From the NCBI GenBank assembly GCA_024276935.1, contig JAJRWH010000043.1, forward strand, positions 5,416 to 69,415: DNA of 64,000 nt, read 5' to 3'. A model generated the notes under the pieces. It was given only the letters and a program-made list of their open reading frames with translations. It had not been told where the DNA came from and did no database searches. This document shows positions 15,150 through 61,061 of this stretch, piece by piece. The stretch comes from Deltaproteobacteria bacterium (GTDB lineage: Bacteria; Desulfobacterota; Desulfuromonadia; Desulfuromonadales; Geopsychrobacteraceae). Position 1 is the stretch's first letter. Each line of letters opens with the position of its first letter. Position numbers and translations under genes: made by a program.

Positions 15150-15152
15150 GTG

Positions 15153-16847: not shown

Positions 16848-16876
16848 GATGTCCAGAGAACAACAAAGGATGAGAC

Positions 16877-17371: not shown

Positions 17372-17380
17372 AGAGCGCCT

Positions 17381-38503: not shown

Positions 38504-38516
38504 AAAGGGATATCTG

Positions 38517-41054: not shown

Positions 41055-41067
41055 AACGGGGTTGCTC

Positions 41068-42582
41068 GTGTGTAAAATCAAAACCATTGAAGAGATCAAG
41101 CCACTGCTCGATGAAGCCCGCAAAGAAGGACGTAAGATTATCCACTGTCACGGGGTTTTCGATCTGCTGCATATCGGGCATATCCGCTATTTTGAACAGG
41201 CGCGGGAGATGGGCGATCTGTTACTGGTCACCCTGACACCTGACCGCTTTGTTGACAAAGGACCGGGGCGTCCGGCCTTTACCGAAGATTTGCGGGCCGA
41301 AAGTATTGCTTCGCTCGATCCGGTCGATTTCGTGGTTATCAACCAGTGGCCGACGGCAGAAGAAACCTTGCGTGTCTTGCGGCCGGATATCTACGTCAAG
41401 GGCTGGGAATTCAAGGAGATTGTCAATGACCCTACCGGCAAGATGGCACTTGAGGCTGAAGTTGTTCGTGAGGTCGGTGCCGAGCTGGCTTTTGCCGGTG
41501 ATATTGTTTTCAGTTCTTCAAACCTGATCAACCGATATTTTTCTCAGCAGCCTGAAGAACTTAAAAGTTATCTCGACCTGTTACGGACCCGGGCCAGTAT
41601 CGAGGGGATCAGCGCGCTGTTTGAGCGCATGGAAAAACTGAAAGTTCTGGTGGTCGGTGATGCCATTCTGGATGCCTACCAGTATTGCGATACGATTGGG
41701 AAATCTTCCAAAGATCCAACCCTGGCCATGAAATATCGTTCAGAAGATCTGTTTGCCGGTGGGGTTTTTGCGGTGGCTAACCATGTGGCCGGATTTGCCC
41801 GTCAGGTCGACCTGTTGACCGTCATCGGTGAGCAGAACTCGCAGGAAGAATTTATTCGCCAGCATCTTCAGCCCAACATTACCCCGACCTTTTTTACTCT
41901 GCCGCAGGCTCCGACTTTGACCAAGCGTCGTTTTATCGATGCCTATTCCCTGAACAAGTTGCTCGAAATCTACGAAATGGACGATTCGGGCCTGCCACCA
42001 GAGCAGACCGAACGCTTCAATGACTGGTTGCGCCAGAGGATTCGTGACTACGATCTGGTTATCGTCGCCGATTTCGGTCATGGCACGATTGCTGACGAAA
42101 CAGTGCGATTGCTGCAAAAGGCCCCCTTTCTGGCGGTCAATACCCAGGCCAATGCCGGAAACCGCGGTTTCAATACCATTGGACGTTATCCAGGGGCCGA
42201 TTTTGGCTGTCTGGCCGAGCATGAACTGCGGCTTGAATACCGTGACATGCGCGGAGATGTGCGTCCCTACCTGCATCATCTGGTCAGACGTTTGGGGGCC
42301 GGGCGTTTCGTCGTCACTCTCGGTCGCCGGGGTTGTGAGGTCTGTAACGCGCGGGGTGAATTTATCAAGGTGCCAACCTTTGCCCGTAACGCTGTAGACC
42401 GGGTCGGAGCCGGTGATGCATTTTTCTCGATCGCTTCGTTGGCCGCCGCTCTGGATGCACCGGATGAAATGATCGCCTTTACCGGCAGTGTTGCCGGTTC
42501 GCTGGCGGTTGAAATTATCGGTAATGAAAAGTCGATTGATCGGATGTCAGCACAGAAATTTGTCACGGCATTGCTGAAATAG
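41068..42582 (+). CDS. Bifunctional sugar-phosphate nucleotidyltransferase (N-term, cytidylyl/adenylyl-transferase fold) / PfkB sugar kinase (C-term); HldE-like with inverted domain order
   Basis: N-terminal IIHCHGVFDLLHIGHIRYFEQA (GxFDxxHxGH nucleotidyltransferase motif). C-terminal VLVVGDAILDAYQYCDTIGKSSKDP...GGVFAVANHVAGF...DRVGAGDAFFS (PfkB/RfaE-I type). Start is GTG 41068 or TTG 41062. Confidence 0.75.
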   Translation: MCKIKTIEEIKPLLDEARKEGRKIIHCHGVFDLLHIGHIRYFEQAREMGDLLLVTLTPDRFVDKGPGRPAFTEDLRAESIASLDPVDFVVINQWPTAEETLRVLRPDIYVKGWEFKEIVNDPTGKMALEAEVVREVGAELAFAGDIVFSSSNLINRYFSQQPEELKSYLDLLRTRASIEGISALFERMEKLKVLVVGDAILDAYQYCDTIGKSSKDPTLAMKYRSEDLFAGGVFAVANHVAGFARQVDLLTVIGEQNSQEEFIRQHLQPNITPTFFTLPQAPTLTKRRFIDAYSLNKLLEIYEMDDSGLPPEQTERFNDWLRQRIRDYDLVIVADFGHGTIADETVRLLQKAPFLAVNTQANAGNRGFNTIGRYPGADFGCLAEHELRLEYRDMRGDVRPYLHHLVRRLGAGRFVVTLGRRGCEVCNARGEFIKVPTFARNAVDRVGAGDAFFSIASLAAALDAPDEMIAFTGSVAGSLAVEIIGNEKSIDRMSAQKFVTALLK

Positions 42583-42599: not shown

Positions 42600-43631
42600 A
42601 TGATCAACAAACCCGTTTATCGTGAATTTGACCGGAGTCGCCTGCAACTGCAACCTCTGGCGCAACGGCAGCACAAGCTTGATCTGTCGATCCTGTTGCC
42701 GCTTGAGAGGCGCCATTATTTTGGTCCTGACTATCAGGTGCTGGCTGAACGGTTGTTGAGCGCCCGCGAAAATCGGCGGGCCGCAATTTTGATGATGGGG
42801 GCCCATGTGATTCGCTCCGGGGTGCAAACCTATCTGATCGATCTGATGGAGCGGGGGCTGATCAGTGCGCTGGCGATGAATGGTGCCGGGATCATCCATG
42901 ACTATGAACTGGCCCTGATCGGAGCGACAACCGAGTGTGTCGAACGCTACATCAGCAATGGTCAGTTCGGTTTCTGGCAGGAAACCGGGCGTCTCAACTC
43001 TCTTGTCAGCGAAGCGGCCCGAGCCGAAAAAGGACTGGGGGAGGCGGTTGGTGAAATGATTGAAACCGGTGATTTTCCCCATCGCCAGATCAGTCTGGCG
43101 GCTGCGGCCTGGCGGCTGGGTATCCCTTTGACGGTTCATGTCGGGATCGGTCAGGACATTATCCATCAGCATCCAGATTGTGATGGAGCCGCTTTCGGGG
43201 CTTGCAGTTACCGGGATTTCTTGCGGTTTGCGGCCGAACTTGAACGCCTTGAAAAAGGGGTGGTGATGAATTTCGGCAGTGCGGTGATGGCTCCCGAAGT
43301 CTATCTGAAGGCCCTGGCCATGGTGCGAAATGTTGCCCATCAACGTCAGGAGCAGGTGGCCGACTTTACGACCCTGGTTGCCGATCTGCCGCAGTTGCCG
43401 GGCGATTATCACAGTGAACCACGTACTGACGACCCCGCCTACTATTTTCGTCCCTGGAAAACCATGCTGGTACGCACTGTCAAAGATGGCGGGCGCAGCA
43501 TTTATTTACAGGGCCGCCATGCTGAAACAATACCGACCCTCTGGAGCGCCATCGGCGCACTGGAGGACCAGATGAAGGGAGAGTCCCATGACCTGGCAGG
43601 ATCACAGCCGTCTGCTTCAACGTCAGCTTGA
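42600..43631 (+). CDS. Uncharacterised 343-aa protein; N-terminal part resembles the deoxyhypusine-synthase-like NAD-binding fold (tentative)
   Basis: ILMMGAHVIRSGVQTYLIDLMERGLISALAMNGAGIIHDYELALIG is reminiscent of the DHS G-A..G..-I-DL-I..G-vd-l-tGAn-HD layout. The assignment is from memory and is weak. Confidence 0.3.
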   Translation: MINKPVYREFDRSRLQLQPLAQRQHKLDLSILLPLERRHYFGPDYQVLAERLLSARENRRAAILMMGAHVIRSGVQTYLIDLMERGLISALAMNGAGIIHDYELALIGATTECVERYISNGQFGFWQETGRLNSLVSEAARAEKGLGEAVGEMIETGDFPHRQISLAAAAWRLGIPLTVHVGIGQDIIHQHPDCDGAAFGACSYRDFLRFAAELERLEKGVVMNFGSAVMAPEVYLKALAMVRNVAHQRQEQVADFTTLVADLPQLPGDYHSEPRTDDPAYYFRPWKTMLVRTVKDGGRSIYLQGRHAETIPTLWSAIGALEDQMKGESHDLAGSQPSASTSA

Positions 43632-44196
43632 TGCACTACAGATCAGTAAAGGACAGCGTAAATTTATTTTGCCCACGGACGAAGGTTTTGCCCATTGGAC
43701 CGACCGGACCTGTCGGACTGCTCTGACCGGACGTACCGTTTATCTGATCGGTAATGGTGCCAGTGCCTCGATGGCCAGTCACATGGCCGCAGATCTGGCC
43801 AAAAATGCCTATGTTCATACTGAAGTTTTCAGCGATCTGTCGCTGTTGACCGCTATTGCCAATGATATCAGCTACGACGAGGTTTTTGCCGAGCCGCTGC
43901 GCCGCCGTATGGTCCAGGGCGACATGCTGGTTGCCATCAGCAGCAGTGGCAGTTCACCCAATGTTCTGCGGGCTGCCGAAACCGCGCGCAGTATGGGGGG
44001 GTACGTGGTGACTCTGTCGGCAATGCGGGACGACAATCCATTACGTCAGGCGGGCCAGCTTAACCTGTACCTTCCGGCAGACACCTATGGTACAGCCGAA
44101 AGCGGGCATGCTTCTATTTTGCATTTTTGGATGGATCAGGTTGCCGAACGACGAGCCCATCTGGCGGATTCACCGGCGGAAGGAACCCATGGATAA
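43588..44196 (+). CDS. SIS-domain sugar-phosphate isomerase, GmhA (sedoheptulose-7-phosphate isomerase)-like
   Basis: 202 aa. VYLIGNGASASMASHMAADL, DMLVAISSSGSSPNVLRAAETARSMGGYVVTLS, and a His-containing C-terminal segment AESGHASILHFW. Confidence 0.75.
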   Translation: MTWQDHSRLLQRQLDALQISKGQRKFILPTDEGFAHWTDRTCRTALTGRTVYLIGNGASASMASHMAADLAKNAYVHTEVFSDLSLLTAIANDISYDEVFAEPLRRRMVQGDMLVAISSSGSSPNVLRAAETARSMGGYVVTLSAMRDDNPLRQAGQLNLYLPADTYGTAESGHASILHFWMDQVAERRAHLADSPAEGTHG

Positions 44197-45256
44197 GTAT
44201 CGGATCGACAGTCATAAATTGATGTTTCATGTTCCGCGGGTCAATGCCTGGTTGCAGGGAGAGCAGGTTTATCCGCTCTATGCCGAGATCAGTCCGACCG
44301 GAGCCTGCAACCATCGTTGTACTTTCTGCGCTCTTGATTACATGGAGTATCAACCGCGTTATCTGGATGCCGATCTGCTGGCAGAGAGGTTGAAGGAGCT
44401 GGGGCAATTGGGACTGAAGTCGGTGATGTTTGCCGGTGAAGGTGAACCCTTTCTCCATCCCCAGTTGGCGCAGATGGTTGGTGCCGCCAAAACTGCCGGT
44501 ATTGATGTTGCTCTGACCAGTAACGGGGTGTTGATGGATGAAGAGCGGGCCCGCTGGATTCTGCCACAACTCAGCTGGATCAAGGTGAGTATCAACGCTG
44601 GTCGTGCGGCAACCTACAGTGCCATCCACCGCACCAAGGAAAGTGACTTTGCCAAAGTGATCGAGAATTTTCGTCGCGCCGTGAAGTTGCGGACAGAAAA
44701 CAACTGGGATTGCACCATCGGTTTTCAGATGTTGTTGCTGCCGGAAAATCGGGACGAAGCCGCTGATCTGGCTGCGATAGGCCGCGAAATCGGCATCGAT
44801 TATCTGGTGATCAAACCCTATTCACAACACCTGCACAGCCAGACCGAGCAGTACCGCGACACCGATTATTCGGATATTGAAGATCTGCAACAGCAGTTGG
44901 CAGGCTACAGCAATGACCGCTTCAAAGTGCTGGTGCGAGCAGGAACCATGGCCAAATTGAAAGCCGAAAATCCGGCCTATCCGCGCTGTCTGGCCCTGCC
45001 TTTCTGGTCTTACATTGATGCCGGTGGCGGAGTCTGGGGATGCAGTGCTCATCTCGGTGACGAACGGTTTCTGTACGGCAATATCAATCAACAGAGTTTT
45101 GCGCAGATCTGGTCAGGTGAAGCGCGCCAAAAATCATTGGCCTGGGTGGCAGACGAACTTGATACCAGTGGCTGCCGGGTTAACTGCCGGATGGATGAAA
45201 TCAACCGCTACCTGCATGAGCTGAAACACCCCGGTGCTCATGTGAACTTTATTTAG
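44189..45256 (+). CDS. Radical SAM enzyme, paralog 1 of 3
   Basis: CNHRCTFC (CxxxCxxC) at about residue 45, GEGEP glycine-rich motif, C-terminal Cys cluster (CSAHLG..GCRVNCRMDE), tail HVNFI. ATG 44189 overlaps the stop of the SIS gene. Confidence 0.8.
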   Translation: MDKYRIDSHKLMFHVPRVNAWLQGEQVYPLYAEISPTGACNHRCTFCALDYMEYQPRYLDADLLAERLKELGQLGLKSVMFAGEGEPFLHPQLAQMVGAAKTAGIDVALTSNGVLMDEERARWILPQLSWIKVSINAGRAATYSAIHRTKESDFAKVIENFRRAVKLRTENNWDCTIGFQMLLLPENRDEAADLAAIGREIGIDYLVIKPYSQHLHSQTEQYRDTDYSDIEDLQQQLAGYSNDRFKVLVRAGTMAKLKAENPAYPRCLALPFWSYIDAGGGVWGCSAHLGDERFLYGNINQQSFAQIWSGEARQKSLAWVADELDTSGCRVNCRMDEINRYLHELKHPGAHVNFI

Positions 45257-45266
45257 GATCTCATCG

Positions 45267-45869
45267 ATGGCACGTCGTATCGGGATCGATTTTGACAATA
45301 CTCTGGTCTGTTACGACCGGTTGTTCCTTCAGTTGGCACAGGAGGAGGGCCACGCCCTGCCAACCAACCTGGGGGGGAAAACCGCCCTGCGTGACTGGTT
45401 GCGGTTGCAGCCAGCAGGAGAAATCGCCTGGCAACGCTTGCAGGCTCAGGCCTATGGCCCGCGAATAACCGAGGCCAGCCTGTTTGAGGGGGTGGAAGAG
45501 ATTCTGAGTGTCTGGCACCAGCGCGGCGATCAGTTGTTTGTGGTCAGTCACAAATCACTTTATGCCGCCCAGGATCAGGAAGGGGTCAATCTTCAGCAGG
45601 CGGCGCGAAACTTTTTGGAACAGAGCGGCCTGTTTGAACGTCAGTTGCTGAATGTGGAACAGGTTTATTTTGAACAAAGCCGTCAGGCAAAGGTTGCACG
45701 AATTGCCGAGCTTGGTTGCGAGATATTTATTGATGATCTGGTGGAAACGTTTGCCGAGCAAGGCTTTCCACAAGGGGTTCGACAAATCCTTTTCGGTGAG
45801 TGTTTATCGCCGCCTGATGGTATCGAATGCTGCCGCAGCTGGCAGGAGATCGGGCGGGTTCTGGAATAA
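45267..45869 (+). CDS. HAD-superfamily phosphatase
   Basis: N-terminal IGIDFDNTL (DxDxT motif I), VVSHKS (motif II-like), and a late IFIDD acidic motif. 200 aa. Confidence 0.7.
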   Translation: MARRIGIDFDNTLVCYDRLFLQLAQEEGHALPTNLGGKTALRDWLRLQPAGEIAWQRLQAQAYGPRITEASLFEGVEEILSVWHQRGDQLFVVSHKSLYAAQDQEGVNLQQAARNFLEQSGLFERQLLNVEQVYFEQSRQAKVARIAELGCEIFIDDLVETFAEQGFPQGVRQILFGECLSPPDGIECCRSWQEIGRVLE

Positions 45870-45874
45870 ATGGA

Positions 45875-46864
45875 ATGGAAAAAGAATTGAACCAGGTGCT
45901 GCAAAAAGAACTGCAAGATCCTCTCTTGCGTTGTTCAGTCGTCGAACAGGGGGGAAACAGTCAGGCTGTGCTGGTCAGCAGTCCGCGGCATGGTGAATTG
46001 CTGGTCAAGCGATATATCGCTGATGGTCGTAAACGGCTCGAAACCGAATATGCTGCGCTGAAATTTCTGTCTCAAAATGGTTTGCCGGTTGCCCGGCCCC
46101 TGTTGGCGCGCCCCGCAGAAAACTATGCAGTTTACAGCCGTCTGCCGGGGACTCTTCCTGACCCGGAAAAGGTCGACCAGCATCTTGTGCAACTGCTCGA
46201 TTTTCTGCGTCGGTTACATGGTTTCAGGAAGGAACTGCGCGATTTCCCTCCAGCGGCTGAGGCCTGCTTGTGTGCCGGGGAGACCCTGGCACTGGTGAAG
46301 AAACGGCGGCAACAATTGAACGCCGTAGCGGATGATGCCTTGCAGAATTTTTTAACCCGCAAGTTCGACCCCTGTTGCCAGCGATTATGCGAGGTTTTTC
46401 AGACTGCGGCAGCTTCAACCCTGGACGTCGAACTTTCTGATGGGCAGCAGACTCTGAGCCCCTCGGATTTTGGTTTACACAATGCACTCTGTTGTCCTGA
46501 GGGGCAGCTTGCGTTTGTTGATTTCGAATATTTCGGACGTGATGATCCGGCCAAGCTGGTCAGTGATTTTCTCTGGCATCCTGCAATGCAATTGTCCGCC
46601 AGATTCAAGACTGATTTTCTTCAGGGTTGCCGCAGGATTTATGGAGAGGAGTTTTATCAGCGTTTCCAGCAGGCCCACCCGCTCCATGGCCTGAAATGGG
46701 TTCTGCTGCTCCTGAATGAGTTTTTGCCGCACCATTGGCAGCGACGGCGTTTTGCCGGAGAGAAAATGTCTCGGCAACAACGCCAGCAAAACCAACTTGA
46801 AAAAGCGCAGAGTTTGCTGGCGCGAATTGAATTGCTGGAGAAAGGAACCACCGATGCAAATTGA
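45875..46864 (+). CDS. APH/choline-kinase-fold phosphotransferase (possible sugar kinase)
   Basis: 329 aa. Catalytic-loop type SPSDFGLHNALCCPEGQLAFVDFEYFGRDDP (D..N ... DFE). ATG 45875. Confidence 0.65.
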   Translation: MEKELNQVLQKELQDPLLRCSVVEQGGNSQAVLVSSPRHGELLVKRYIADGRKRLETEYAALKFLSQNGLPVARPLLARPAENYAVYSRLPGTLPDPEKVDQHLVQLLDFLRRLHGFRKELRDFPPAAEACLCAGETLALVKKRRQQLNAVADDALQNFLTRKFDPCCQRLCEVFQTAAASTLDVELSDGQQTLSPSDFGLHNALCCPEGQLAFVDFEYFGRDDPAKLVSDFLWHPAMQLSARFKTDFLQGCRRIYGEEFYQRFQQAHPLHGLKWVLLLLNEFLPHHWQRRRFAGEKMSRQQRQQNQLEKAQSLLARIELLEKGTTDAN

Positions 46865-47675
46865 TCCGCTCAAAACGCCCCTCGATCGCAGATCGCGTGA
46901 ACTGAGGCACCAGATGGTGCGGATGATGGAAGAAGCCGGGCGTGGCCATCTGGCTTCGGCATTTTCGCTGGTCGAGATTCTACGGGTTCTCTATGACGAT
47001 ATTTTACGCATAGATCCGTCCCGGCCTGATTGGCCGCAGCGTGACCGCTTGATTCTCAGCAAGGGACACGGCTGTATGGCCCTTTATGTGATGTTGGCCG
47101 AACGGGGGTTTTTCCCCGAATCGGCGTTGTGGGATTTCTGTAAACCGGGCGGTTTGCTCGGGGGACATCCCGAACACAAGGTGCCGGGGGTTGAGGCCTC
47201 GACCGGCAGTCTGGGACATGGCCTTTCTTTTGGGGTTGGTTTTGCCCTTAATGCCCGGATGGATGACAGCCCGGCTCGTACTTATGTGGTTGTTGGCGAT
47301 GGGGAATGCAATGAAGGTTCAGTGTGGGAGGCGGCGATGGCGGCGGCCAAACACCAGCTGGCAAATCTCTGTGTGCTGGTTGACTGCAACAAACTGCAAT
47401 CCTACGGGCCGACAGCCGATATCCAGAATCTTGATCCCTTCGCCGACAAGTGGCGGGCCTTCGGTTTTGAGGTCAACGAAGTCGATGGTCATGATCTGGT
47501 GGCGTTGCGACAGCTGCTGGAGCGCCCGCCGGGGAGACAGCCGCGGACGATCATCTGCCACACCGTCAAAGGCAAGGGGATTCCCGAGGTTGAAAATAAT
47601 CTGGCCTGGCATCACAAGAGTAAATTGCCGACCGAAAAACTGGCTGAACTTTATCAGGCGCTGGAGGAGAACTGA
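46854..47675 (+). CDS. Transketolase, N-terminal (TPP-binding) subunit
   Basis: GHLASAFSLVEIL, LSKGHGCMALY, TGSLGHGLSFGVGFAL, VVVGDGECNEGSVWEAAMAA. The start overlaps the kinase stop by 11 nt. Confidence 0.9.
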   Translation: MQIDPLKTPLDRRSRELRHQMVRMMEEAGRGHLASAFSLVEILRVLYDDILRIDPSRPDWPQRDRLILSKGHGCMALYVMLAERGFFPESALWDFCKPGGLLGGHPEHKVPGVEASTGSLGHGLSFGVGFALNARMDDSPARTYVVVGDGECNEGSVWEAAMAAAKHQLANLCVLVDCNKLQSYGPTADIQNLDPFADKWRAFGFEVNEVDGHDLVALRQLLERPPGRQPRTIICHTVKGKGIPEVENNLAWHHKSKLPTEKLAELYQALEEN

Positions 47676-48595
47676 TGCGACAGACCTGTCTTGATACGGT
47701 TTATCAACTGGCCCGGCAGGACGAACGGGTGGTCTTTATCGGTTCTGATCTTGGTGAAGGAACTTTGGCAGATTTCCGGCGTGAGATCCCTCAGCGGTTC
47801 TTCATGGAGGGGATCAGCGAGGCCAATATTCTGACCATGGCGGCAGGGCTGGCCATGAATGGCAAAATCCCCTACGTCAATACCATCGCGCCTTTTCTGA
47901 CCCGACGGGCCTACGAGCAGATTCTGCTCGATCTTTGTCTGCACCGGGTCAATGTGAGGCTCCTCGGCAATGGCGGTGGCATGGTCTACGCCCCGCTCGG
48001 CCCGACTCATATGGTGATTGAGGATCTGGCGGCACTGCGCGCAATCCCCGGAATGACAATTCTTGCGCCTGCCGATGCTGAAGAGATGCAGCGGCTGATG
48101 CGATTGACGACCGATTATCAGGGGCCGATCTATGTGCGTTTCGGTAAAGGGTTTGATCCGGTGGTCAGCCAGGCCGAACAGCCGGTTGTCATTGGCAAAG
48201 CCGTCACCTACGCCAGCGGGAACGATCTGTTGCTGATTTCGACCGGAATCACTTTGAAACTGGTTCTTGAAGCCGCCGAGAACCTGCAAAATCAAGGTGT
48301 TTCGACCGCGATTCTGCATTACCACAGTATCAAGCCCTTCGATACAGAAAGTCTTCTTGCCCGGGCCGCGCAGGTTCGGGCGGTGATTACGGTCGAAGAG
48401 CATTCGGTGATTGGCGGGTTGGGCGGCGCGGTTGCCGAAACATTACTCGAAGCGGATCTGGCCAGGGTGCCAAAATTCAGGCGGATCGGGGTGCCAGATC
48501 AATTCCCGGAGGATTATGGTTCGCAGGCCCATTTGATGAACAGCTTCGGGATCTGTAGTGAAAACATTATTGCCCAGGCACAGGCCATGCTCTGA
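47675..48595 (+). CDS. Transketolase, C-terminal (pyrimidine-binding) subunit
   Basis: FFMEGISEANILTMAAGLAMNGKIPYVNTIAPFLT, IRAIPGMTILAPADAEE. ATG overlaps the upstream stop (TGATG). Confidence 0.9.
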   Translation: MRQTCLDTVYQLARQDERVVFIGSDLGEGTLADFRREIPQRFFMEGISEANILTMAAGLAMNGKIPYVNTIAPFLTRRAYEQILLDLCLHRVNVRLLGNGGGMVYAPLGPTHMVIEDLAALRAIPGMTILAPADAEEMQRLMRLTTDYQGPIYVRFGKGFDPVVSQAEQPVVIGKAVTYASGNDLLLISTGITLKLVLEAAENLQNQGVSTAILHYHSIKPFDTESLLARAAQVRAVITVEEHSVIGGLGGAVAETLLEADLARVPKFRRIGVPDQFPEDYGSQAHLMNSFGICSENIIAQAQAML

Positions 48596-48621
48596 GATAT
48601 TTGGGATAAAGGATTTCAGTG

Positions 48622-49488
48622 ATGAAAAAATTACTGCTACTCGGTGGTAGCGGCAAGCTGGGAACAGCGATTAATCAGGTTTTCTCCCCGCAGTGGACGA
48701 TAAAATCCCTGACTTCACAGGATTTTGATGCGGCAAATCCTGAATCACTGCTGCCGCAGTTGAGTGATTTTCACCCTGATCTGATCGTCAACTGTGTGGC
48801 TTACCTGGGGATCGATCCCAGTGAGGCCGACCCCCAGGCAGCATTTCGGCTCAATGCTCTGCTGCCGCGTTACCTGGCGGAACTGGCCGAGAAATACAGC
48901 TGTCCGCTGGTCCATTTCAGCAGTGATGCGGTGTTCAGCGGTGCGAAGAAAACCATTTTGAGCGAGCAGGATTGTCCTGATCCGGTCAACCTTTACGGCA
49001 TCACCAAGCTGGCCGGAGACCATCTGGTTGCTGCCGTGACACCCCGGCACTATATCCTTCGTATTTCGCTTCTGTTTGGTGCCAGCAGCAAGCAGAACCA
49101 GTTTGTCGAAAAGATGCTCGAACGGGTTCGCAAGGGGCAGGCAGAATTGCAGATTGCCGCTGATATTGTTGCTTCACCCAGTTATGCCCCAGATATTGCG
49201 CGACAATTATTCAATATCATTGAAGAAAAACGACCCTGGGGACTTTACCATGTTGCGAATGATGGCCAGGCGTCGTTGTTTGACCTGATGAAGGAACTTT
49301 GTCGGCTCTGTGCTCCGCAGGTCAGGGTTCAGGCCGCGTCCCACCATGACTTTGCCGCAGTTGGGCGTAAAAATGATTTTACCCCGCTTTGTTCAGTCAA
49401 ACTGAATGCCTTGCGCCCCTGGCAGGAGGCCCTGGTCGATTATGTGGCAACCCTCGATATGAGCCCTCAGACAGGGGGAAAGGATTAA
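48622..49488 (+). CDS. RmlD-like NAD(P)-dependent sugar reductase (dTDP-4-dehydrorhamnose reductase family)
   Basis: MKKLLLLGGSGKLGTAI, HFSSDAVFSG, YGITKLAGDHLV (YxxxK). 288 aa. Confidence 0.7.
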   Translation: MKKLLLLGGSGKLGTAINQVFSPQWTIKSLTSQDFDAANPESLLPQLSDFHPDLIVNCVAYLGIDPSEADPQAAFRLNALLPRYLAELAEKYSCPLVHFSSDAVFSGAKKTILSEQDCPDPVNLYGITKLAGDHLVAAVTPRHYILRISLLFGASSKQNQFVEKMLERVRKGQAELQIAADIVASPSYAPDIARQLFNIIEEKRPWGLYHVANDGQASLFDLMKELCRLCAPQVRVQAASHHDFAAVGRKNDFTPLCSVKLNALRPWQEALVDYVATLDMSPQTGGKD

Positions 49489-49489
49489 T

Positions 49490-50578
49490 ATGAAGAACGG
49501 CAAATTACAGATGGAAGGTTCGAAACTTCTTTGGCACCTTGACCGTGTGACCCAATGGCAAGAGGGAGAACGGGTTGCGCCACTGCATATCGATGTCGGT
49601 TTGAGCAAAAGTTGCAATATCCGTTGTGAATACTGTTTCGGTTCGATGCAGGGCAATCGTTTTGTTACCAAAGATCCCCGCGCTTTTCCCCGCGAGGCGC
49701 TGCTGCGTTATGTCGAAGATGCCGGTGCGATCGGGGTGCGTTCGATGGCCTTTATCGGTGAAGCCGAACCTTTGCTGAACCCGGCGGTTTACGAGGCAAT
49801 TGTCGCCGGGAAAAAAGCCGGGGTCGACATTGCCCTGGGAAGCAACGGGATTCTGTATGAGATGTCACCTGCTGGTGAAGAGGCACTCGAATATTTGACC
49901 TGGCTGCGTTTCAATATCAGTGCCGCCAGTGCCGAAGGCTACAAGAGGATTCACAACAGTGATGATTTTGAAACAGCACTGCAAAAGATTCGCTACTGTG
50001 TCGGTATCAAGCGGCAGAAAAATCTCGATGTGACCATCGGTTTACAGATGGTTCTGACGCCGAGCAATCGTGATCAGGTGGTGGGGTTGGCGAAGCTGGG
50101 CCGTGAACTCGGGGTTGATTACCTGGTGGTCAAACAGTGCAGCGATACCCCGGACAGCACTCTTGGAATTTATGATCACTTGAAGGAATACCGTGATTTT
50201 AACGAGTTGTTACAGGAAGCCGAGGCCCAGGCGACCGATGACTACAAGGTTATCATCAAATGGAACATGATCGAAAACGAGGGTGCTCGTCATTACGATG
50301 TCTGCTATGCACCACCTTTTCTGCTCTATTCGAGCGGTGACGGCAAGCTTTTCCCCTGTGGGGCCTTTTTCGATCATCGGGCCGATGAATTCTGCATGGG
50401 TGATCTGGTCGAACAATCTTTTCGTCAGATTATCGAGAGCGACCGCTATTGGGACGTCGTTGAGCGGGTCAAGCAGCTCGACGTTCATTGCGACTGTTAT
50501 TCGAACTGCCGTTCGCACTTCGTTAATGATTTTCTGTGGCAGGTCAAACATCCGCCGCAGCATGTCAATTTTATCTGA
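49490..50578 (+). CDS. Radical SAM enzyme, paralog 2 of 3
   Basis: CNIRCEYC, GEAEP, FNISAASAEGYKRIH, C-terminal Cys cluster (CGAFFDH..HCDCYSNCRSHF), tail HVNFI. The N-terminal SKLLWHLDRV is shared with paralog 3. Confidence 0.8.
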   Translation: MKNGKLQMEGSKLLWHLDRVTQWQEGERVAPLHIDVGLSKSCNIRCEYCFGSMQGNRFVTKDPRAFPREALLRYVEDAGAIGVRSMAFIGEAEPLLNPAVYEAIVAGKKAGVDIALGSNGILYEMSPAGEEALEYLTWLRFNISAASAEGYKRIHNSDDFETALQKIRYCVGIKRQKNLDVTIGLQMVLTPSNRDQVVGLAKLGRELGVDYLVVKQCSDTPDSTLGIYDHLKEYRDFNELLQEAEAQATDDYKVIIKWNMIENEGARHYDVCYAPPFLLYSSGDGKLFPCGAFFDHRADEFCMGDLVEQSFRQIIESDRYWDVVERVKQLDVHCDCYSNCRSHFVNDFLWQVKHPPQHVNFI

Positions 50579-50598
50579 AAAGACAAAGGATTGCTGTA

Positions 50599-51663
50599 AT
50601 GGATGACAGCTATAAAATGTCCGGCCACAAACTTTTATGGCACCTTGACCGGGTTCACGACTGGGCCGAAGGCAAGCAGATCGCACCGCTCTATCTCGAT
50701 ATGGGGATCACCCAGTCGTGTAATGTTGCCTGCAAGTACTGTTATTATGCGACACCTGAAAATCGCACCGACAAGATTATTCCGACCCCTGCTCTGATCC
50801 GCTTTCTCGGCGACTGTGCCGACATGGGAGTCAAGGCGATCGGGTTTCTTGGTGATGGTGAACCGATGCTTCATCCCGGGGTTTATGAGGCGGTCACTGC
50901 CGGGGCTGATTGCGGGCTGGATATGGCGATCTCGACCAACGGTGTGGTGATGAAAGAAGAGGGCCTGCTTGAATTTCTGCGTGCCCTGACCTGGATCCGG
51001 TTCAATATCAGTGCCGCTGACGCCAGCAAGTATGAGCAGATCATGGGAGTGCCGCCGTCGGTTTTCGACAAGGTGGTCGCCCATATCAAAGCCTGTGTCG
51101 AATTGAAAAAGCGCTTCAAACTGGAGGTAACCATCGGTATGCAGATGGTTCTGATCGCTGACTGTGTTGATCAGATTGTCGACTATGCCAGGTTGGGCAA
51201 GGAGCTGGGTGTTGATTATGTGGTGATCAAGCAGTGCTCGGAAAGTGGTGAGGTTGGCCGGGGCAATGCGGTGACCGATATTGCCCCCCTGGAAGAGGTG
51301 ATGCAAAAAGCGGAATCCCTCGCCAATGAGAACTATCGGGTGATCATTAAGCGCCGCAAGATGGAGTACAATCAGCGGACCTATGACCATTGTTACGGGT
51401 GCGAATTTTTACCGCAGATCAACGGAGCCGGTGAGGTTTACTGCTGCGGAAATTTCTTCGGCAACCCGGAGTTTTATATCGGCAACCTCTGCGAGGAATC
51501 GTTCCGGGATATTGTCTTTGGCGAACGTTACCGGCAGGTGATGGACCAGGTCAAGCAGCAGGTCGATGTGCAAACCATGTGCGGTGAGAAGTGCCGTCAG
51601 AACGAAATCAACGAATTTCTCTGGTCGTTGAAAAATCCTCCAGACCATCTCAACTTCATCTGA
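50599..51663 (+). CDS. Radical SAM enzyme, paralog 3 of 3
   Basis: CNVACKYC, GDGEP, FNISAADASKYEQIM, C-terminal Cys cluster (CCGNFFGN..MCGEKCRQNE), tail HLNFI. ATG 50599. Confidence 0.8.
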   Translation: MDDSYKMSGHKLLWHLDRVHDWAEGKQIAPLYLDMGITQSCNVACKYCYYATPENRTDKIIPTPALIRFLGDCADMGVKAIGFLGDGEPMLHPGVYEAVTAGADCGLDMAISTNGVVMKEEGLLEFLRALTWIRFNISAADASKYEQIMGVPPSVFDKVVAHIKACVELKKRFKLEVTIGMQMVLIADCVDQIVDYARLGKELGVDYVVIKQCSESGEVGRGNAVTDIAPLEEVMQKAESLANENYRVIIKRRKMEYNQRTYDHCYGCEFLPQINGAGEVYCCGNFFGNPEFYIGNLCEESFRDIVFGERYRQVMDQVKQQVDVQTMCGEKCRQNEINEFLWSLKNPPDHLNFI

Positions 51664-51708: not shown

Positions 51709-54291
51709 TCAGCAAGATCTCAACAACAGATCCGCCGCTGTTTTTATGGTGTATTTTTCGCGGATGGCTGTCCCTGCTTTTTCCACATGCGCCTCCCGTT
51801 CTTCCGGGTGCTCCAGAAAATAGTGCAGTTTCTCTTCCAGATCGGCCATGTCGTTAAAGCTGGGATAATCAGGATCGTCCAGGACCTCAAGCAGTCCTCC
51901 TGGCTGGTTGTCGGTCACATTGGTTCGTGGCAGGACGAAAGCACCACAGGCCAGACATTCCATCACCCGGGGGTGGACGTTGGTGTCACCATTGATATGC
52001 AGATTGATGCGGCTTCTCTGGTAGAAACGAGCCAGTTCTTTGCCGGGTGTAATGTGACGATGGCGATAGGGTTCACTGGCGGGGAAAAGGTGCCAGCCTT
52101 CACCGGCGATGGCCAGAGACCAGTTGTGCTTTTTACTGAGGTTGATCAACTGTGCGGCCAGGTCGGCACGCTGTACCCGGCGGACCAGACTTTGAATAAT
52201 GTAGTGAACAACTTCCTGGCGTAATTCCTTGCCCTGCAGATAGATGCCAGTTTCCATTTCTGCCCGGAAGAGTAGCGCCTCACCTGTTGCCCAGATACAG
52301 GCAAAGATTTTTTCGCGGCGGATTTTCGCGCAGATGAGGTTGAAAAGGGTTTCAATCTGCTGGTCCTGTTGTGGGTCACCCGATGGTGGCCAGTGCAGTC
52401 TGGGCAGGTAGCCGGCAAATGAGATATCGACATCATAATCATTGTTCGGGGGCTGATAGTAGTTGGCGTAATCGGTAAAGGGCGGGAAAAATTCTGAGCC
52501 CTCATACAGATGGGTCCAGTTGTTGGTGAAGGGCAGAATCCGTTCATCGCTGACCTCACCTTCAAACAGCTGTGGCAAGTCCTGCATCCAGACATGAACC
52601 CGAAGTTCTTTGGGAAAGTTAAAAACATTGCGATAAAAATTAATGGTAAAAATATCTGTAGCCCCGGAATGTTTGATTTCACTGGCCAGGTTGAGAATGT
52701 CCTGTTTTTTAAAGGCTTTGGGATAAGCGCCGCGGGCAGCGATATAGGTGGTTTCAATCCCGCGTGATTCCATTTCGGCCTGGAGAGCATTGCCAAACTG
52801 GGCGTAAATTCCTTTGACGGGCAGAATTAGAGCAAATTTTCGACTGTCCTTATGGTTGGCTGTTGGTGCTGCGGGGCGAATCTGACGCAGGATTTCGCGC
52901 GCAAAATGATCGTAGCTGTAGAGTTCACTGAAATGCTGTGGAGATGTTTCTCGGACCTGCCGACAAGCCTCTGCAAGCTGGTTTGCTGTTTGAAAAAAAA
53001 GGCTTTGATCTTCAAAAAAAGGTGGTTCGGAAAGTTCACGGCAGTCGTAGATGATCGGAATGCAGCCACAGGCACGAACTTCGCGCAGACGTTGCGACTG
53101 ACAATCGAACGGATGGCAGACCAGAGCATATTTGCTGCTGCGGTAGATATTGGCAACCGCATTGCCGTGAGGTACCGCTCCTTTGAAAAAGGGCATGACC
53201 GTCTGGTTGTATTCCCAGTAGCGACCATAGATTTCGACCTCAAGTTCCTGTTGTTGGCAAAGCCAGGTCACCGTGCGGTCACGCAGGGCCGCGTGGAGAA
53301 ATCGCCAGAAAACGGTGTCTGCGGTGTAGTCATATTTACGGGCAATTTCATCGGTCATTTTTTTGGTGACCAACAATCCGTTATCGATCAGGGTTGTCAG
53401 TTCGGCAAAAATGGCTCGACTGATTTCGGTTTCAAATATCTGCGGAGAGGGACCTGAGCCAATAAAAACGATCTTGTTCTGGCGATGGTCTGTTTTGTCG
53501 CCATGGAAAATAGTCTTGTCGATGCAGAAAGACTGGCGCTGAATCTTTTGTGCCCCGGCTGCGTACAGATAATCATCGAGAACGTCAGAAAAAGAATAAA
53601 CCAGATCGCGTGCGCGCCATTTCAGGCGATGCTGCGAGATAATTTCAGGCATGGGGTCCTGCCACCAGGTCAGATTGTAAACATCGGGGTGCAGGTAGGC
53701 ATTATTCAGATGGTTGATGTTGATGACCAGATGTGGATTGAACTTCAGATGGTCATCAAGGGTTTTTTGCTGGTCATACTCTTCCATTTCGTTCTGCTCG
53801 ATGGTCAGCAGGGTGGTATGGCCCATTTCGGCAAAAGCATCCATCAGGCTTTTGGCACTGTACTGCATGACTGTTGTCAGGCGGCTGGCAACACAAAAAA
53901 TTCGCAACGGACCCGAGGTGGGGATTTCCGGATGGAGTTTGAGAATTTCCTGGGCATAGAGTTGAGCCGTTTGTTGACGCTTATGGCGGATGGACTCCAT
54001 CATCTGATGAAAGTTTTTTGTCTGCTTGATGATCAGGTCCTGGCGGGTCCCCTCTTTAAAGACCACCTTGGTTGGCAGGCGCAGGTTGGTATTGGTGAAA
54101 AAATTGAGAGTCTCCTTGCGGGGGATCTGAATCAGATTGGGGGGGGCATCCGCTCGTGGATTTTCGGTTCCCAGATAGCAGATCTGCAGACCGTCAACAG
54201 CCATGGTTCGTTGAACCCGATTTTGTTGCATGGCAGTTTCGTAGGCCAGGTCGGCATCAAAAAAGTAACTGTCCTGACAGGAGTTGTTCAT
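51709..54291 (-). CDS. Large internally duplicated CgeB-like (Glyco_trans_1_2 type) glycosyltransferase
   Basis: 860 aa. Two modules of similar layout (RIFCVASRLTTVMQYSAKSLMDAFAEMGH.. vs KFALILPVKGIYAQFGNALQAEMESRGI..). Each ends in a CgeB-type segment (QRLREVRACGCIPIIYD; PRVMECLACGAFVLPRT..LEEKLHYFLEHPEEREAHVEKAGTAIREKYT). Confidence 0.6.
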   Translation of the reverse strand: MNNSCQDSYFFDADLAYETAMQQNRVQRTMAVDGLQICYLGTENPRADAPPNLIQIPRKETLNFFTNTNLRLPTKVVFKEGTRQDLIIKQTKNFHQMMESIRHKRQQTAQLYAQEILKLHPEIPTSGPLRIFCVASRLTTVMQYSAKSLMDAFAEMGHTTLLTIEQNEMEEYDQQKTLDDHLKFNPHLVININHLNNAYLHPDVYNLTWWQDPMPEIISQHRLKWRARDLVYSFSDVLDDYLYAAGAQKIQRQSFCIDKTIFHGDKTDHRQNKIVFIGSGPSPQIFETEISRAIFAELTTLIDNGLLVTKKMTDEIARKYDYTADTVFWRFLHAALRDRTVTWLCQQQELEVEIYGRYWEYNQTVMPFFKGAVPHGNAVANIYRSSKYALVCHPFDCQSQRLREVRACGCIPIIYDCRELSEPPFFEDQSLFFQTANQLAEACRQVRETSPQHFSELYSYDHFAREILRQIRPAAPTANHKDSRKFALILPVKGIYAQFGNALQAEMESRGIETTYIAARGAYPKAFKKQDILNLASEIKHSGATDIFTINFYRNVFNFPKELRVHVWMQDLPQLFEGEVSDERILPFTNNWTHLYEGSEFFPPFTDYANYYQPPNNDYDVDISFAGYLPRLHWPPSGDPQQDQQIETLFNLICAKIRREKIFACIWATGEALLFRAEMETGIYLQGKELRQEVVHYIIQSLVRRVQRADLAAQLINLSKKHNWSLAIAGEGWHLFPASEPYRHRHITPGKELARFYQRSRINLHINGDTNVHPRVMECLACGAFVLPRTNVTDNQPGGLLEVLDDPDYPSFNDMADLEEKLHYFLEHPEEREAHVEKAGTAIREKYTIKTAADLLLRSC

Positions 54292-58230: not shown

Positions 58231-58235
58231 CGCGG

Positions 58236-60983: not shown

Positions 60984-61032
60984 AGAGTTCTCCTGTTGGA
61001 TCATAGTCATTTGAGAAGACAAGGGCGGGACA

Positions 61033-61061
61033 ATAATATGACACACTCTACATCCTGCCAA
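61033..61061 (-). promoter_or_regulatory. Sigma70-like promoter for the minus-strand nonulosonate operon
   Basis: Minus strand reads TTGGCA-N17-TATTAT (plus-strand TGCCAA 61056-61061 and ATAATA 61033-61038). Confidence 0.45.

Follow-up and report, generated by a model that had tools for sequence, protein, structure and literature searches.

Three twitch-type radical SAM paralogs in a sugar operon of a flagellar region: candidate tailoring enzymes of a nucleotide-activated higher-carbon sugar

Gene content of the locus

The window, that is, the whole stretch of 64,000 nucleotides that was analysed, holds a co-directional operon running from an HldE-like gene to RS3, the last of three radical SAM genes (RS1, RS2 and RS3), in which the genes overlap or nearly abut. 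This operon is set in a flagellar region that also holds Maf genes, flagellins and a legionaminic-acid-type cluster. The original prediction had described a single sugar operon, and the tight packing of the genes within a flagellar and flagellin-glycosylation region agrees with it. The features are as follows.

36966-38249 and 38418-41054, + strand: two Maf-type (MptE-like) putative flagellin glycosyltransferases (Pfam MptE-like, 118 and 150 bits)
40960..42582, + strand: HldE-like bifunctional enzyme (Pfam CTP_transf_like and PfkB)
42600..43631, + strand: GSU2086-family protein, function not assigned (NCBIfam NF052581, 381 bits vs a cut-off of 250)
43588..44196, + strand: SIS-domain sugar-phosphate isomerase, GmhA-like (Pfam SIS_2), overlapping the start of RS1
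44189..45256, + strand: RS1, twitch-type radical SAM protein of 355 aa; cluster cysteines C40-x3-C44-x2-C47; auxiliary cysteines 267/285/329/333; Tyr211; C-terminus HVNFI
45267..45869, + strand: putative phosphatase of 200 aa, with an N-terminal DFDNT motif (HAD-type DxDxT) read from the translation
45827..46864, + strand: APH-family kinase-like protein (Pfam APH, 51 bits)
46854..47675, + strand: split transketolase, N-terminal (ThDP-binding) subunit (Pfam Transketolase_N, 145 bits; NCBIfam NF004559, 272 bits)
47675..48595, + strand: split transketolase, C-terminal (pyrimidine-binding + C) subunit (Pfam Transket_pyr and Transketolase_C)
48619..49488, + strand: RmlD-like NAD(P)H-dependent sugar-nucleotide ketoreductase (Pfam RmlD_sub_bind, 203 bits), directly upstream of RS2
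49490..50578, + strand: RS2, paralog of RS1 and RS3, 362 aa; cluster cysteines 42/46/49; auxiliary cysteines 272/290/336/340; extra clade-invariant Cys217; C-terminus HVNFI
50599..51663, + strand: RS3, paralog of RS1 and RS2, 354 aa; cluster cysteines 41/45/48; auxiliary cysteines 265/283/328/332; extra clade-conserved Cys166, 189, 213 and 268; C-terminus HLNFI
51709..54291, - strand: 860-aa protein with two Glyco_trans_1_2 domains (Pfam), convergent with RS3
54315..61061, - strand: legionaminic-acid-type nonulosonate pathway (Pfam), with CMP-transferase, CBS-nucleotidyltransferase, 2-epimerase, NeuB, PglD-like acetyltransferase, DegT aminotransferase and dehydratase genes
61269-62090 and 62266-63153, + strand: two flagellins (Pfam Flagellin_N and Flagellin_C), the likely targets of glycosylation

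In the HldE-like enzyme, whose translation probably begins downstream of 41054, the usual domain order is reversed, with the nucleotidyltransferase N-terminal and the PfkB kinase C-terminal. It scores 153 bits with the NCBIfam HldE model, the cut-off being 521, and is therefore a relative of HldE rather than an equivalog; the SIS protein reaches 54-69 bits with GmhA models (cut-offs 209-320). Scores so far under the GmhA and HldE cut-offs do not establish a heptose substrate. The GSU2086-family gene, for whose product no PDB sequence match was found, is conserved beside HldE-like and SIS genes; in G. sulfurreducens, hldE and gmhA flank GSU2086, and insertion mutants show an electrode-growth defect (PMC5585712). 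No Pfam, NCBIfam or PDB match was obtained for the 45267..45869 protein; this type of gene co-occurs with the APH-like kinase and a 60%-type transketolase in four other loci (L008, L014, L075 and L086). The APH-like kinase likely starts near 45875, and the gene order APH, transketolase N- and C-subunits, RmlD and radical SAM is repeated in L088, L089 and L091. In the PDB, the transketolase C-subunit is best matched by 6yaj (E=6e-57), the C-terminal chain of a split transketolase from Carboxydothermus hydrogenoformans, and the RmlD-like protein scores 196.5 bits vs the 224-bit cut-off of TIGR01214 (rmlD).

Three homologous proteins with a one-cluster auxiliary domain

The three predicted radical SAM reading frames are present in the ORF list at the positions given above, all on the + strand. 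Longer mechanical ORFs begin at 44087 and 50536, while orthologs measure 354-362 aa, which supports the shorter start codons originally chosen. Identity in BLASTP is 34% between RS1 and RS2 (E=4e-70), 33% between RS1 and RS3 (E=1e-71) and 43% between RS2 and RS3 (E=8e-105); the homology is full-length and well above chance. Every shared feature that had been listed was recovered in each paralog: (i) the CxxxCxxC motif, (ii) the N-terminal element K-L-x-x-H-x-x-R-V-x-x-W (K10, L11, H14, R17, V18 and W21; RS1 numbering here and below), (iii) a G-E/D-G/A-E-P motif at 83-87, (iv) four C-terminal cysteines (C267, C285, C329 and C333), and (v) the HxNFI end. The third of these is nothing special: it is the canonical 'GGE' motif with which all radical SAM enzymes bind SAM, and it matches G187-E190 of DesII (PMC11434129).

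All three proteins pass the Pfam gathering scores for both Radical_SAM and SPASM (76.7 and 27.3 bits, respectively, for RS1). The exclusion of class B methylases holds, as the Pfam search found no B12-binding domain in any of them and the first strand of the core begins after only about 30 residues in the AF2 models of RS1 and RS2 (pLDDT 94.5 and 93.7). A SPASM/twitch-like auxiliary domain had been suggested. RS1 has only four cysteines beyond residue 250, and the auxiliary spacing C-x12-G-x4-C ... C-x3-C is found in 317/355 sequences; since only these four auxiliary cysteines are conserved, the domain is of the one-cluster twitch type and not a full two-cluster SPASM. Each paralog would accordingly be expected, on its cysteine pattern, to bind one [4Fe-4S] cluster that cleaves SAM and a second, auxiliary [4Fe-4S] cluster whose ligands are all Cys.

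An ancient and widespread family

At E<=1e-30 the family comprises 1,778 representatives of 50%-identity clusters, which come from numerous phyla of anaerobic bacteria and from some archaea. Conservation across about 345 homologs exceeds 98% for the seven cysteines and the C-terminal tail; in a 344-sequence alignment the seven cysteines, K10, P29, E86, Y205, K209 and H351 are 100% conserved, and among 140 diverse representatives the cysteines are likewise invariant, with twitch spacing. Of the fetched homologs, 350/352 end in HxNF[IV]. The N-terminus and tail that had been called unusual characterise a very large family rather than this locus.

RS2 and RS3 had also been taken for a recent duplication, which does not agree with their 43% identity. 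Orthologs of RS1 (355 aa) are found across phyla at about 60% identity, those of RS2 in other phyla at 60-70%, and those of RS3 at 55-70%, including 60-70% in distant phyla; the tandem of RS2 and RS3 is also found in Thermodesulfovibrionales and on one metagenome contig (L021, L088). Judged from these sequences, the three are ancient subfamilies. Position 211 separates them: Tyr is invariant there (100%) in the RS1 clade, and Cys takes its place in 100% of RS2-clade and 90% of RS3-clade sequences.

All curated NCBIfam models stay below their cut-offs for RS1, RS2 and RS3, so that the profile search places them in no characterised subfamily, and our literature search found no paper on the family, which is large, widespread and so far uncharacterised. 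The best NCBIfam match, TIGR04317, and the MoaA models, together with the automatic JGI label 'GTP 3',8-cyclase' of some homologs, would suit a cofactor enzyme, either a MoaA-like GTP 3',8-cyclase or a maturase of tungsten-cofactor oxidoreductases. We regard this as extremely improbable, given 60-95 bits vs 380 for TIGR04317 and 42-61 bits vs 284 for MoaA, three paralogs in one operon, and about 90 loci in which no molybdopterin or tungsten-enzyme neighbours were found.

Structural relatives

The nearest solved folds are those of sugar-nucleotide and nucleoside-sugar enzymes. DesII is the best PDB match of the AF2 models of both RS1 (TM 0.71, 17-19% identity) and RS2 (TM 0.62-0.64), with BlsE also high and BtrN and anSME among the further matches. 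Sequence identity to DesII is only 13-19% overall, and the sequence alignment spans the radical SAM core only. DesII and the RS models share a three-part build: a helical N-terminal part, the radical SAM core, and a beta-hairpin with helices at the C-terminus. The auxiliary cluster predicted in RS1, RS2 and RS3 is absent from DesII, which acts on a TDP-sugar, forms a 3-keto sugar and is also capable of dehydrogenating TDP-quinovose (PMC11434129). Position 211 is the fold equivalent of the SAM-adenine motif on beta6 of DesII (D323/Y324; PMC11434129), and for this reason the Tyr/Cys switch may concern SAM binding and not H-atom donation.

Peptide maturases of the SPASM/twitch type (sactipeptide, ranthipeptide, anSME or epimerase-like), acting on flagellin or a small precursor peptide, also have relatives among these matches: CteB, SuiB, SkfB, anSME and EpeE appeared in profile and fold searches, the Pfam SPASM match fits them, and the locus is flagellar. 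Such a role is nonetheless very unlikely. The residues ahead of the core are too few for a RiPP recognition element, the conserved cysteines suffice for one auxiliary cluster only, and every NCBIfam peptide-maturase model stays far under its cut-off. Furthermore, orthologs lie in polysaccharide clusters without flagellin (flagellin and Maf homologs each occur in 1/83 loci), and the family's fusions join sugar enzymes.

Gene neighbourhoods of orthologs

A ThDP enzyme gene lies within 3 kb downstream of RS1 orthologs, on the same strand, in 61/66 loci, and belongs to one of three non-orthologous types: split transketolase (39), E1 alpha/beta (19) or ALS-like (3). HldE-like and/or SIS genes are upstream in 36/64 loci (HldE-like in 35/64), and GT9 (heptosyltransferase-family) genes occur in 25/87. 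All eight RS2-ortholog loci, which include Acetivibrio cellulolyticus, one archaeon and Geobacter sp. OR-1, have the transketolase-RmlD-RS2 block, with the RmlD-like gene directly upstream of RS2; in A. cellulolyticus the RS2 ortholog is flanked by 700-730-aa proteins with a Glyco_trans_1_2 domain. Family members are naturally fused to an ALS-like ThDP enzyme, SIS (P0365), a cytidylyltransferase-like domain, a methyltransferase and a DegT sugar aminotransferase.

The substrate might instead be the legionaminic-acid-type sugar, or its non-sugar substituent, and not a separate higher sugar. NeuB and other nonulosonate genes adjoin the module here, in A. cellulolyticus, in a Hydrothermarchaeota MAG and in several Nitrospirota loci, and a CMP-transferase-type gene is nearby in 6/83 loci. 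We consider this unlikely, as a NeuB homolog is within 10 kb in only 8/83 RS1 loci, many cassettes of the type RS1-E1-GT2-B12 radical SAM-GT9 lack NeuB, and the domains fused to family members are of the SIS, HldE-type nucleotidyltransferase, ThDP and DegT kinds, with no nonulosonate enzymes among them.

Proposed role

Taken together, RS1, RS2 and RS3 probably tailor a carbohydrate or sugar nucleotide. The almost constant association of the family with ThDP enzymes that form C-C bonds and with sugar-nucleotide genes makes radical remodelling of an activated higher sugar the most likely function, and on balance we favour ancient twitch-type paralogs that tailor a nucleotide-activated higher-carbon sugar, a substrate and a chemistry that we infer. 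Assembly of the sugar would fall to the GmhA-like isomerase, HldE-like kinase/nucleotidyltransferase, GSU2086-family protein, HAD-like protein, APH-like kinase and split transketolase, and all three paralogs might act on this one scaffold.

The division of labour among them can be proposed only tentatively. Each enzyme would reductively cleave SAM, and the 5'-deoxyadenosyl radical would take a hydrogen from a sugar C-H; the conserved basic side of the N-terminal helix (K10, H14 and R17) and the HxNF[IV] motif, which is strictly C-terminal, probably cover the nucleotide-diphosphate substrate and so close the active site. RS1, with Tyr211 and without a free Cys, would oxidise or dehydrate the alpha-hydroxyalkyl radical to a carbonyl, as in DesII, BtrN and AprD4, its auxiliary cluster handling the electron. 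This carbonyl could then accept the ThDP-bound C2 unit of the transketolase, to give a branched or chain-extended sugar; YerE and AviB1/B2 are ThDP enzymes that attach C2 branches to NDP-keto-sugars. The RmlD-like reductase would reduce a keto group. In RS2 and RS3 the extra clade-conserved Cys sits directly after strand beta6, and the two might epimerise by returning an H atom from it, as in HygY and NeoN, or else deoxygenate together with the reductase, in the manner of AprD4/AprD3, a pair of radical dehydratase and reductase. According to a title cited in PMC10991966, HygY is a twitch epimerase that one Cys mutation turns into a dehydrogenase.

The usual substrates of transketolases are sugar phosphates that have a free aldehyde, so the ThDP enzyme may build a ketose phosphate before nucleotide activation instead of acting on an RS1 product. 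Developed fully, and modelled on ADP-heptose synthesis or the lincosamide GDP-octose route (for which LmbR/N/P/K/O set the precedent), this order would have the ThDP enzyme make a C7-C9 ketose phosphate from an aldose phosphate, then the SIS, kinase, phosphatase and nucleotidyltransferase proteins yield an NDP-sugar, with RS1, RS2 and RS3 as late epimerase, deoxygenase or dehydrogenase and no direct hand-over to the ThDP enzyme. The operon holds the full set (isomerase, kinase, HAD-like protein, nucleotidyltransferase and transketolase), a genuine split transketolase is the closest relative of the C-subunit, and L089 carries a separate TAL, SIS, kinase, HAD and NTP-transferase cassette of the same logic. 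We nevertheless hold it rather doubtful: RS1 adjoins ThDP genes much more tightly than SIS/HldE genes, this adjacency is kept where a pyruvate-type E1 or ALS-like enzyme, neither of which makes isomerisable ketose phosphates, replaces the transketolase, and a direct ALS-like::radical SAM fusion was found. Under the favoured reading, radical tailoring of a nucleotide-activated higher sugar, the finished sugar would be placed on flagellin alongside the legionaminic-acid-type sugar.

Family signatures of three radical SAM paralogs

The sugar operon of the window encodes three paralogous radical SAM enzymes, here designated RS1, RS2 and RS3, in the following ORFs:

RS1: 44189-45256, + strand, 355 aa
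RS2: 49490-50578, + strand, 362 aa
RS3: 50599-51663, + strand, 354 aa

Every element that the original prediction had listed as shared by these ORFs was seen in a three-way alignment, which confirms the observation itself; its interpretation was borne out in part. Mechanical ORFs start further upstream for RS1 (44087) and RS3 (50536); the start codons used here are supported because the orthologs are uniformly 354-362 aa long. All three proteins belong to the radical SAM superfamily, with PF04055 scores of 44-77 bits (gathering score 29.5) and with the cluster motif CxxxCxxC, 100% conserved in homologs, at C40/44/47 in RS1 (to which residue numbers refer unless stated otherwise), C42/46/49 in RS2 and C41/45/48 in RS3. 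The G83-E-G-E86-P87 motif, of which G83 and E86 are invariant, is indeed common to the three paralogs but is nothing special, as it corresponds to the canonical GGE SAM-binding motif (G187-E190 in DesII; PMC11434129). They had also been judged not to be class B (cobalamin-dependent) methylases, and rightly so, since PF02310 gave no match and only about 30 residues lie ahead of strand 1.

Approximately 350 homologs were fetched, of which 344 were aligned. Residues C40, C44, C47, C267, C285, C329, C333, K10, P29, E86, Y205, K209 and H351 are 100% conserved in this alignment, and L11, H14, R17, W21, N353 and F354 are conserved at 96-99%. The last residues of the protein are HxNF[IV] in 350 of 352 homologs, with RS1, RS2 and RS3 all ending in H-x-N-F-I; of the 147 sequences examined as representatives of 50%-identity clusters, 111 carry a C-terminal H-x-N-F-[IVLA], while most of the others retain the terminal aromatic-aliphatic pair. 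The N-terminal element and the tail, at first regarded as unusual, are thus not oddities of this locus but, being conserved across the homologs, signatures of the family.

A single predicted auxiliary cluster

For the C-terminal cysteines, we defined a SPASM domain by two auxiliary [4Fe-4S] clusters and the seven-cysteine motif CX9-15GX4C ... CX2CX5CX3C ... C, and a twitch domain as a truncated SPASM, namely a beta-hairpin bearing CX9-15GX4C plus further cysteines, enough for one [4Fe-4S] cluster. Only four C-terminal cysteines are conserved, with the spacing C-x12-G-x4-C ... C-x3-C in 317 of 355 sequences; after residue 250, RS1 contains exactly four cysteines. The Pfam SPASM HMM nevertheless still scores above its gathering value (24-27 bits vs 21.5), and all seven family cysteines are retained by 137 of 140 diverse members. 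The predicted hairpin strands 273-276 and 281-283 of RS1 are followed by helices, in keeping with the twitch definition. Since four conserved cysteines suffice for one auxiliary [4Fe-4S] cluster, we predict a twitch domain: the auxiliary domain initially proposed as SPASM/twitch-like does exist as a conserved unit, but a full two-cluster SPASM domain is rejected for the family.

AlphaFold2 models of RS1 (pLDDT 94.5) and RS2 (pLDDT 93.7) comprise an N-terminal helix (residues 11-22 in RS1), the beta/alpha core, a beta-hairpin and C-terminal helices. The first two auxiliary cysteines lie on the beta-hairpin and the CxxxC pair on the C-terminal helices. K10, H14 and R17, spaced i, i+4 and i+7, are predicted to lie on the same side of the N-terminal helix and to form a basic stripe that could bind a diphosphate.

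Comparison with known radical SAM enzymes

No NCBIfam model reached its cut-off for RS1, RS2 or RS3. The best match was TIGR04317, the tungsten cofactor oxidoreductase maturase (95, 60 and 76 bits, respectively, vs a cut-off of 380), and scores were likewise far below the cut-offs for MoaA (TIGR02666; 42-61 bits vs 284), DesII (TIGR04426; 47 bits for RS1 vs 450) and BlsE (TIGR04466; about 37 bits vs 400). We therefore rejected assignment to any curated equivalog, including the tungsten cofactor maturase, MoaA, viperin, DesII, NirJ, PqqE, BlsE and others. The C-terminal Gly-Gly tail of MoaA type is also absent, the paralogs ending instead in H-x-N-F-I. Public names of the homologs are either generic ("radical SAM protein") or transferred ("GTP 3',8-cyclase"), and we found neither a description of the family in a full-text literature search nor a curated model for it.

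DesII, which acts as TDP-4-amino-4,6-dideoxy-D-glucose deaminase and TDP-quinovose dehydrogenase (PDB 8HZV/8HZY), ranked first for both models in a Foldseek search of the PDB (TM 0.71 and 0.62-0.64, 13-19% identity), followed by SuiB, BlsE, SkfB, anSME, CteB, BtrN, viperin and MoaA. It converts a TDP-amino-sugar into a 3-keto sugar, also dehydrogenates TDP-quinovose, and has a similar layout, in which an N-terminal helical part precedes the radical SAM core and two helices accompany a C-terminal beta-hairpin (PMC11434129). In contrast to the single N-terminal helix, four invariant auxiliary cysteines and HxNF[IV] end of the RS1-RS3 family, however, the N-terminal domain of DesII comprises six helices, and the enzyme carries only one [4Fe-4S] cluster (PMC11434129). 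BlsE (cytosylglucuronate decarboxylase, PDB 7VOB), a radical SAM enzyme acting on a nucleoside-linked sugar, came high in both sequence and fold searches, but at 14-18% identity. BtrN and HygY/NeoN have a twitch domain with a single auxiliary cluster and act on carbohydrates, as predicted for the family; the match to BtrN is weak, with a profile E of 1e-9 across the core and a TM of 0.38-0.43 relative to the query, and HygY/NeoN, compared by description only, act on aminoglycoside pseudo-oligosaccharides and not in ThDP-associated sugar-nucleotide cassettes (ThDP, thiamine diphosphate).

The SPASM peptide maturases CteB, SuiB, SkfB and anSME share with the family a beta-hairpin bearing C-x12-G-x4-C, the first half of the SPASM motif, and CteB was the best sequence-profile match in the PDB (E=1.4e-14). 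The family differs from them in having neither the second auxiliary cluster (CX2CX5CX3C) nor a peptide-recognition domain; the N-terminal extension is the single helix 11-22, with no RRE domain. Among some 90 loci compared, moreover, the neighbours with recognisable homology are sugar-pathway genes, with no peptide-gene context among them. Family members are naturally fused to an ALS-like ThDP enzyme, a SIS (GmhA-like isomerase) domain, a methyltransferase or a DegT sugar aminotransferase, and three examples are fused to an HldE-type nucleotidyltransferase domain. On context, fusions and architecture, the readings as RiPP maturases or as cofactor-biosynthesis enzymes are both poorly supported, and we rejected them.

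Separate observations concern other domain combinations. P0454, a metagenomic family member of 631 aa, contains an intein splicing domain (PF14890) at residues 90-323, the match to which stops where that to the radical SAM core starts. P0192, P0207 and P0217 (462-465 aa) are RS2 orthologs, 64-65% identical, fused to a PF01883 Fe-S cluster assembly domain.

Age and distribution of the paralogs

Pairwise BLASTP gave identities of 34% for RS1-RS2 (E=4e-70), 33% for RS1-RS3 (E=1e-71) and 43% for RS2-RS3 (E=8e-105). RS2 and RS3 had been taken for a recent duplication, which we reject because of this low identity and because each has closer orthologs in other phyla; the tandem also recurs elsewhere (loci L021 and L088). 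As judged from the sequences, the three paralogs are ancient. RS1 orthologs (355 aa, 57-65% identity) occur in Nitrospirota, Thermodesulfobacteriota, Planctomycetota (including anammox bacteria), Omnitrophota, Elusimicrobiota, Peribacteria and several archaeal MAGs; RS2 orthologs (60-68%) in Scalindua, Acetivibrio cellulolyticus, Nitrospinota, Denitrovibrio and others; and RS3 orthologs show 55-70% identity. The closest named relative is a Deltaproteobacteria MAG, Dive96_bin2.157 (92% identity).

A profile search of 1.84 billion cluster representatives returned 1,778 family representatives (50%-identity clusters) at E<=1e-30, and a single peptide pattern matched 315 times in species-representative genomes. 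Average-linkage clustering at about 42% identity divided 140 diverse members into more than 70 groups.

The archaeal orthologs of RS1 in L015, L047 and L072 (an uncultured archaeon, Undinarchaeota and Hydrothermarchaeota, respectively) are 55-60% identical and stand in the same HldE-RS1-transketolase order, with a SIS gene also in L015 and L072, and with RmlD, RS2 and a NeuB set additionally in L072. This gene order suggests inter-domain transfer of the whole module.

The operon and its surroundings

Flagellar genes (FliF, FliI, FliK, FlgE, FlhB, FlhA, FlhF, FlgK and FlgL) extend across 5.8-36 kb and are followed by two genes for Maf proteins (MptE-like putative flagellin glycosyltransferases). 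Next comes one co-directional, tightly packed operon, from the HldE-like enzyme to RS3, and convergent with it lie the gene for an 860-aa Glyco_trans_1_2 protein and a legionaminic-acid-type pathway, then two flagellin genes.

Order of the operon and the convergent 860-aa protein
1: 40960-42582, HldE-like enzyme
2: 42600-43631, GSU2086-family protein (NF052581)
3: GmhA-like SIS isomerase
4: RS1
5: 200-aa protein with N-terminal DxDxT
6: APH-like kinase
7: split transketolase
8: RmlD-like reductase
9: RS2
10: RS3
Convergent: 51709-54291, - strand, 860-aa protein with two Glyco_trans_1_2 domain matches

The HldE-like enzyme has a nucleotidyltransferase followed by a PfkB kinase, the reverse of canonical HldE, and scores 153 bits vs a cut-off of 521; the reversed order was also observed in Scalindua and in L089. 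The GSU2086-family protein shows only faint similarity to a deoxyhypusine-synthase/ArgZ-like Rossmann fold, and its gene is conserved beside HldE-like and SIS genes in many phyla. In Geobacter sulfurreducens, GSU2086 lies between hldE and gmhA, and insertions in the three genes cause similar electrode-growth defects (PMC5585712). This protein may be the missing step, perhaps a phosphatase, of a heptose-like pathway. No PDB sequence match was obtained for the GSU2086-family protein, the 200-aa HAD-like protein or the APH-like kinase.

The 860-aa Glyco_trans_1_2 protein matched no NCBIfam family and is a candidate transferase for the product of the operon. Similar proteins of 700-730 aa flank the RS2 ortholog in Acetivibrio cellulolyticus. 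A promoter and terminator scan over 36-55 kb was uninformative. Just upstream of the fliF region, an 820-aa ORF at 2083-4545 matched nothing in Pfam at E<=1e-5.

Association with ThDP enzymes at homologous loci

To count ThDP partners, we used the 66 RS1-ortholog loci with at least 3 kb of downstream sequence. A ThDP-enzyme gene lies on the same strand within 3 kb downstream in 61 of them, and this slot is occupied by three non-orthologous types, a split transketolase (n = 39), E1 alpha/beta (n = 19) or an ALS-like enzyme (n = 3). HldE-like and/or SIS genes are immediately upstream of the RS1 ortholog in 36 of 64 loci. Also frequent nearby are a small GT2 (40/87), a B12-radical SAM protein (31/87), a GT9 heptosyltransferase-family protein (25/87) and another family member, which shares about 41% identity with RS2. 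For RS2, the order TKN-TKC-RmlD-RS2 (TKN and TKC, split transketolase subunits) is kept in all eight loci (L006, L008, L021, L031, L072, L088, L090 and L091), one of which also has a Maf gene. Acetivibrio cellulolyticus combines three family members with a split transketolase, RmlD-like genes, Glyco_trans_1_2 proteins and a NeuB set. In our first survey of 83 non-redundant loci, Maf genes occurred in a single locus and a flagellin homolog in a different one, which indicates a general glycan module that was recruited to flagellin glycosylation in the window.

Two other gene arrangements were observed. A highly conserved eight-gene cassette of Thermodesulfobacteriota MAGs (L004, L012, L017, L024, L041, L042, L057 and L068; approximately 10001-17700 in each) consists of an RS1 ortholog, E1 alpha, E1 beta, a small GT2, a B12-radical SAM protein, a 162-aa protein of unknown type, a GT9 and a 289-aa radical SAM protein; it thus contains three different radical SAM types, and has no HldE/SIS genes nearby. 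In L089 (17456-21000), genes for a GHMP kinase, an NTP transferase, a SIS isomerase, a HAD protein and a transaldolase (TAL_FSA) stand in a row, resembling the logic of GDP-heptose or lincosamide GDP-octose synthesis; an RS3 ortholog and an APH-TK-RmlD-rSAM block (TK, transketolase; rSAM, radical SAM) lie 6 kb away.

Overall, it is well supported that RS1-RS3 are sugar-pathway radical SAM enzymes with one predicted auxiliary cluster, functionally coupled to ThDP carboligases and an RmlD-like reductase.

Proposed chemistry

YerE and AviB1/B2 carry out ThDP-dependent C2 branching of NDP-keto-sugars; in the branched-sugar pathways known so far, NAD-dependent 4,6-dehydratases supply the keto sugar, and no radical SAM enzyme is known to do so. 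AprD4/AprD3 consists of a radical SAM diol dehydratase and an NAD(P)H reductase. Compared by description only, the pairing of RS1 with a ThDP enzyme (61/66 loci) follows the YerE or AviB1/B2 logic of a keto-sugar generator beside a ThDP carboligase, and that of RS2 with the RmlD-like protein (8/8 loci) the AprD4/AprD3 logic of a radical SAM enzyme beside an SDR reductase. By analogy, RS1 would install a carbonyl on a nucleotide-activated higher sugar through DesII/BtrN/AprD4-like chemistry, and this carbonyl would accept a ThDP-bound C2 unit, as with YerE and AviB1/B2. The RmlD-like enzyme would reduce a ketone, and RS2 and RS3 might perform epimerisation or, together with the reductase, deoxygenation. 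The main rival keeps the family assignment but places the ThDP enzyme first, where it would build a ketose phosphate that is then activated by the SIS and HldE-like enzymes.

In its fullest form, the carbonyl-first scheme would be an undescribed radical-plus-ThDP route of the RS1 clade and its obligate ThDP partner, in which a carbonyl formed by the radical SAM enzyme on a nucleotide-activated heptose-like sugar is followed by C2 addition of the transketolase, E1 or ALS type, so that no condensation of NeuB type would be needed to obtain a sugar that is branched or has nine carbons. Anaerobic bacteria, and some archaea, would share this route widely, and here it would serve flagellin glycosylation, with HxNF[IV] as an active-site plug or gate like the C-terminal tail of MoaA. 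We put this complete scheme forward as a possibility, and rather doubt that it holds in all its parts.

The residue directly after strand beta6 (position 211) is Tyr in 100% of the RS1 clade, and Cys in 100% of the RS2 clade (Cys217) and 90% of the RS3 clade (Cys213), which at the level of sequence is a sharp clade discriminator. By fold, position 211 also corresponds to the adenine-stacking residue of beta6 (Y324 in DesII). The difference parallels the Cys-dependent switch of HygY: according to a title cited in PMC10991966, mutation of one Cys turns this twitch epimerase into a dehydrogenase. As putative H-atom donors, the non-ligand Cys217 of RS2 and Cys213 of RS3 would recall epimerases of the HygY/NeoN type.

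Significance of the family

RS1-RS3 represent an uncharacterised clade of twitch radical SAM carbohydrate enzymes that is large, rich in signatures and strikingly partnered with ThDP enzymes. To our knowledge, the radical SAM enzymes so far known to remodel sugars (DesII, BtrN, AprD4, HygY, NeoN and BlsE) belong to a small number of antibiotic pathways. The present finding points to a very large and phylogenetically broad family in the primary cell-surface glycan pathways of anaerobes. Its signatures are crisp: seven cysteines are invariant, the N-terminal helix is basic, HxNF[IV] stands at the C-terminus, and the partnership with ThDP carboligases is near-obligate. The Tyr/Cys switch at one position provides a directly testable hypothesis for the division of chemistry among the paralogs. 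Characterising the family would assign a function to thousands of "radical SAM protein" annotations, would define an unknown component of a flagellin glycan, and could reveal how anaerobes, using neither O2- nor NAD-dependent routes, make higher sugars that are deoxy, epimeric, branched or chain-extended.
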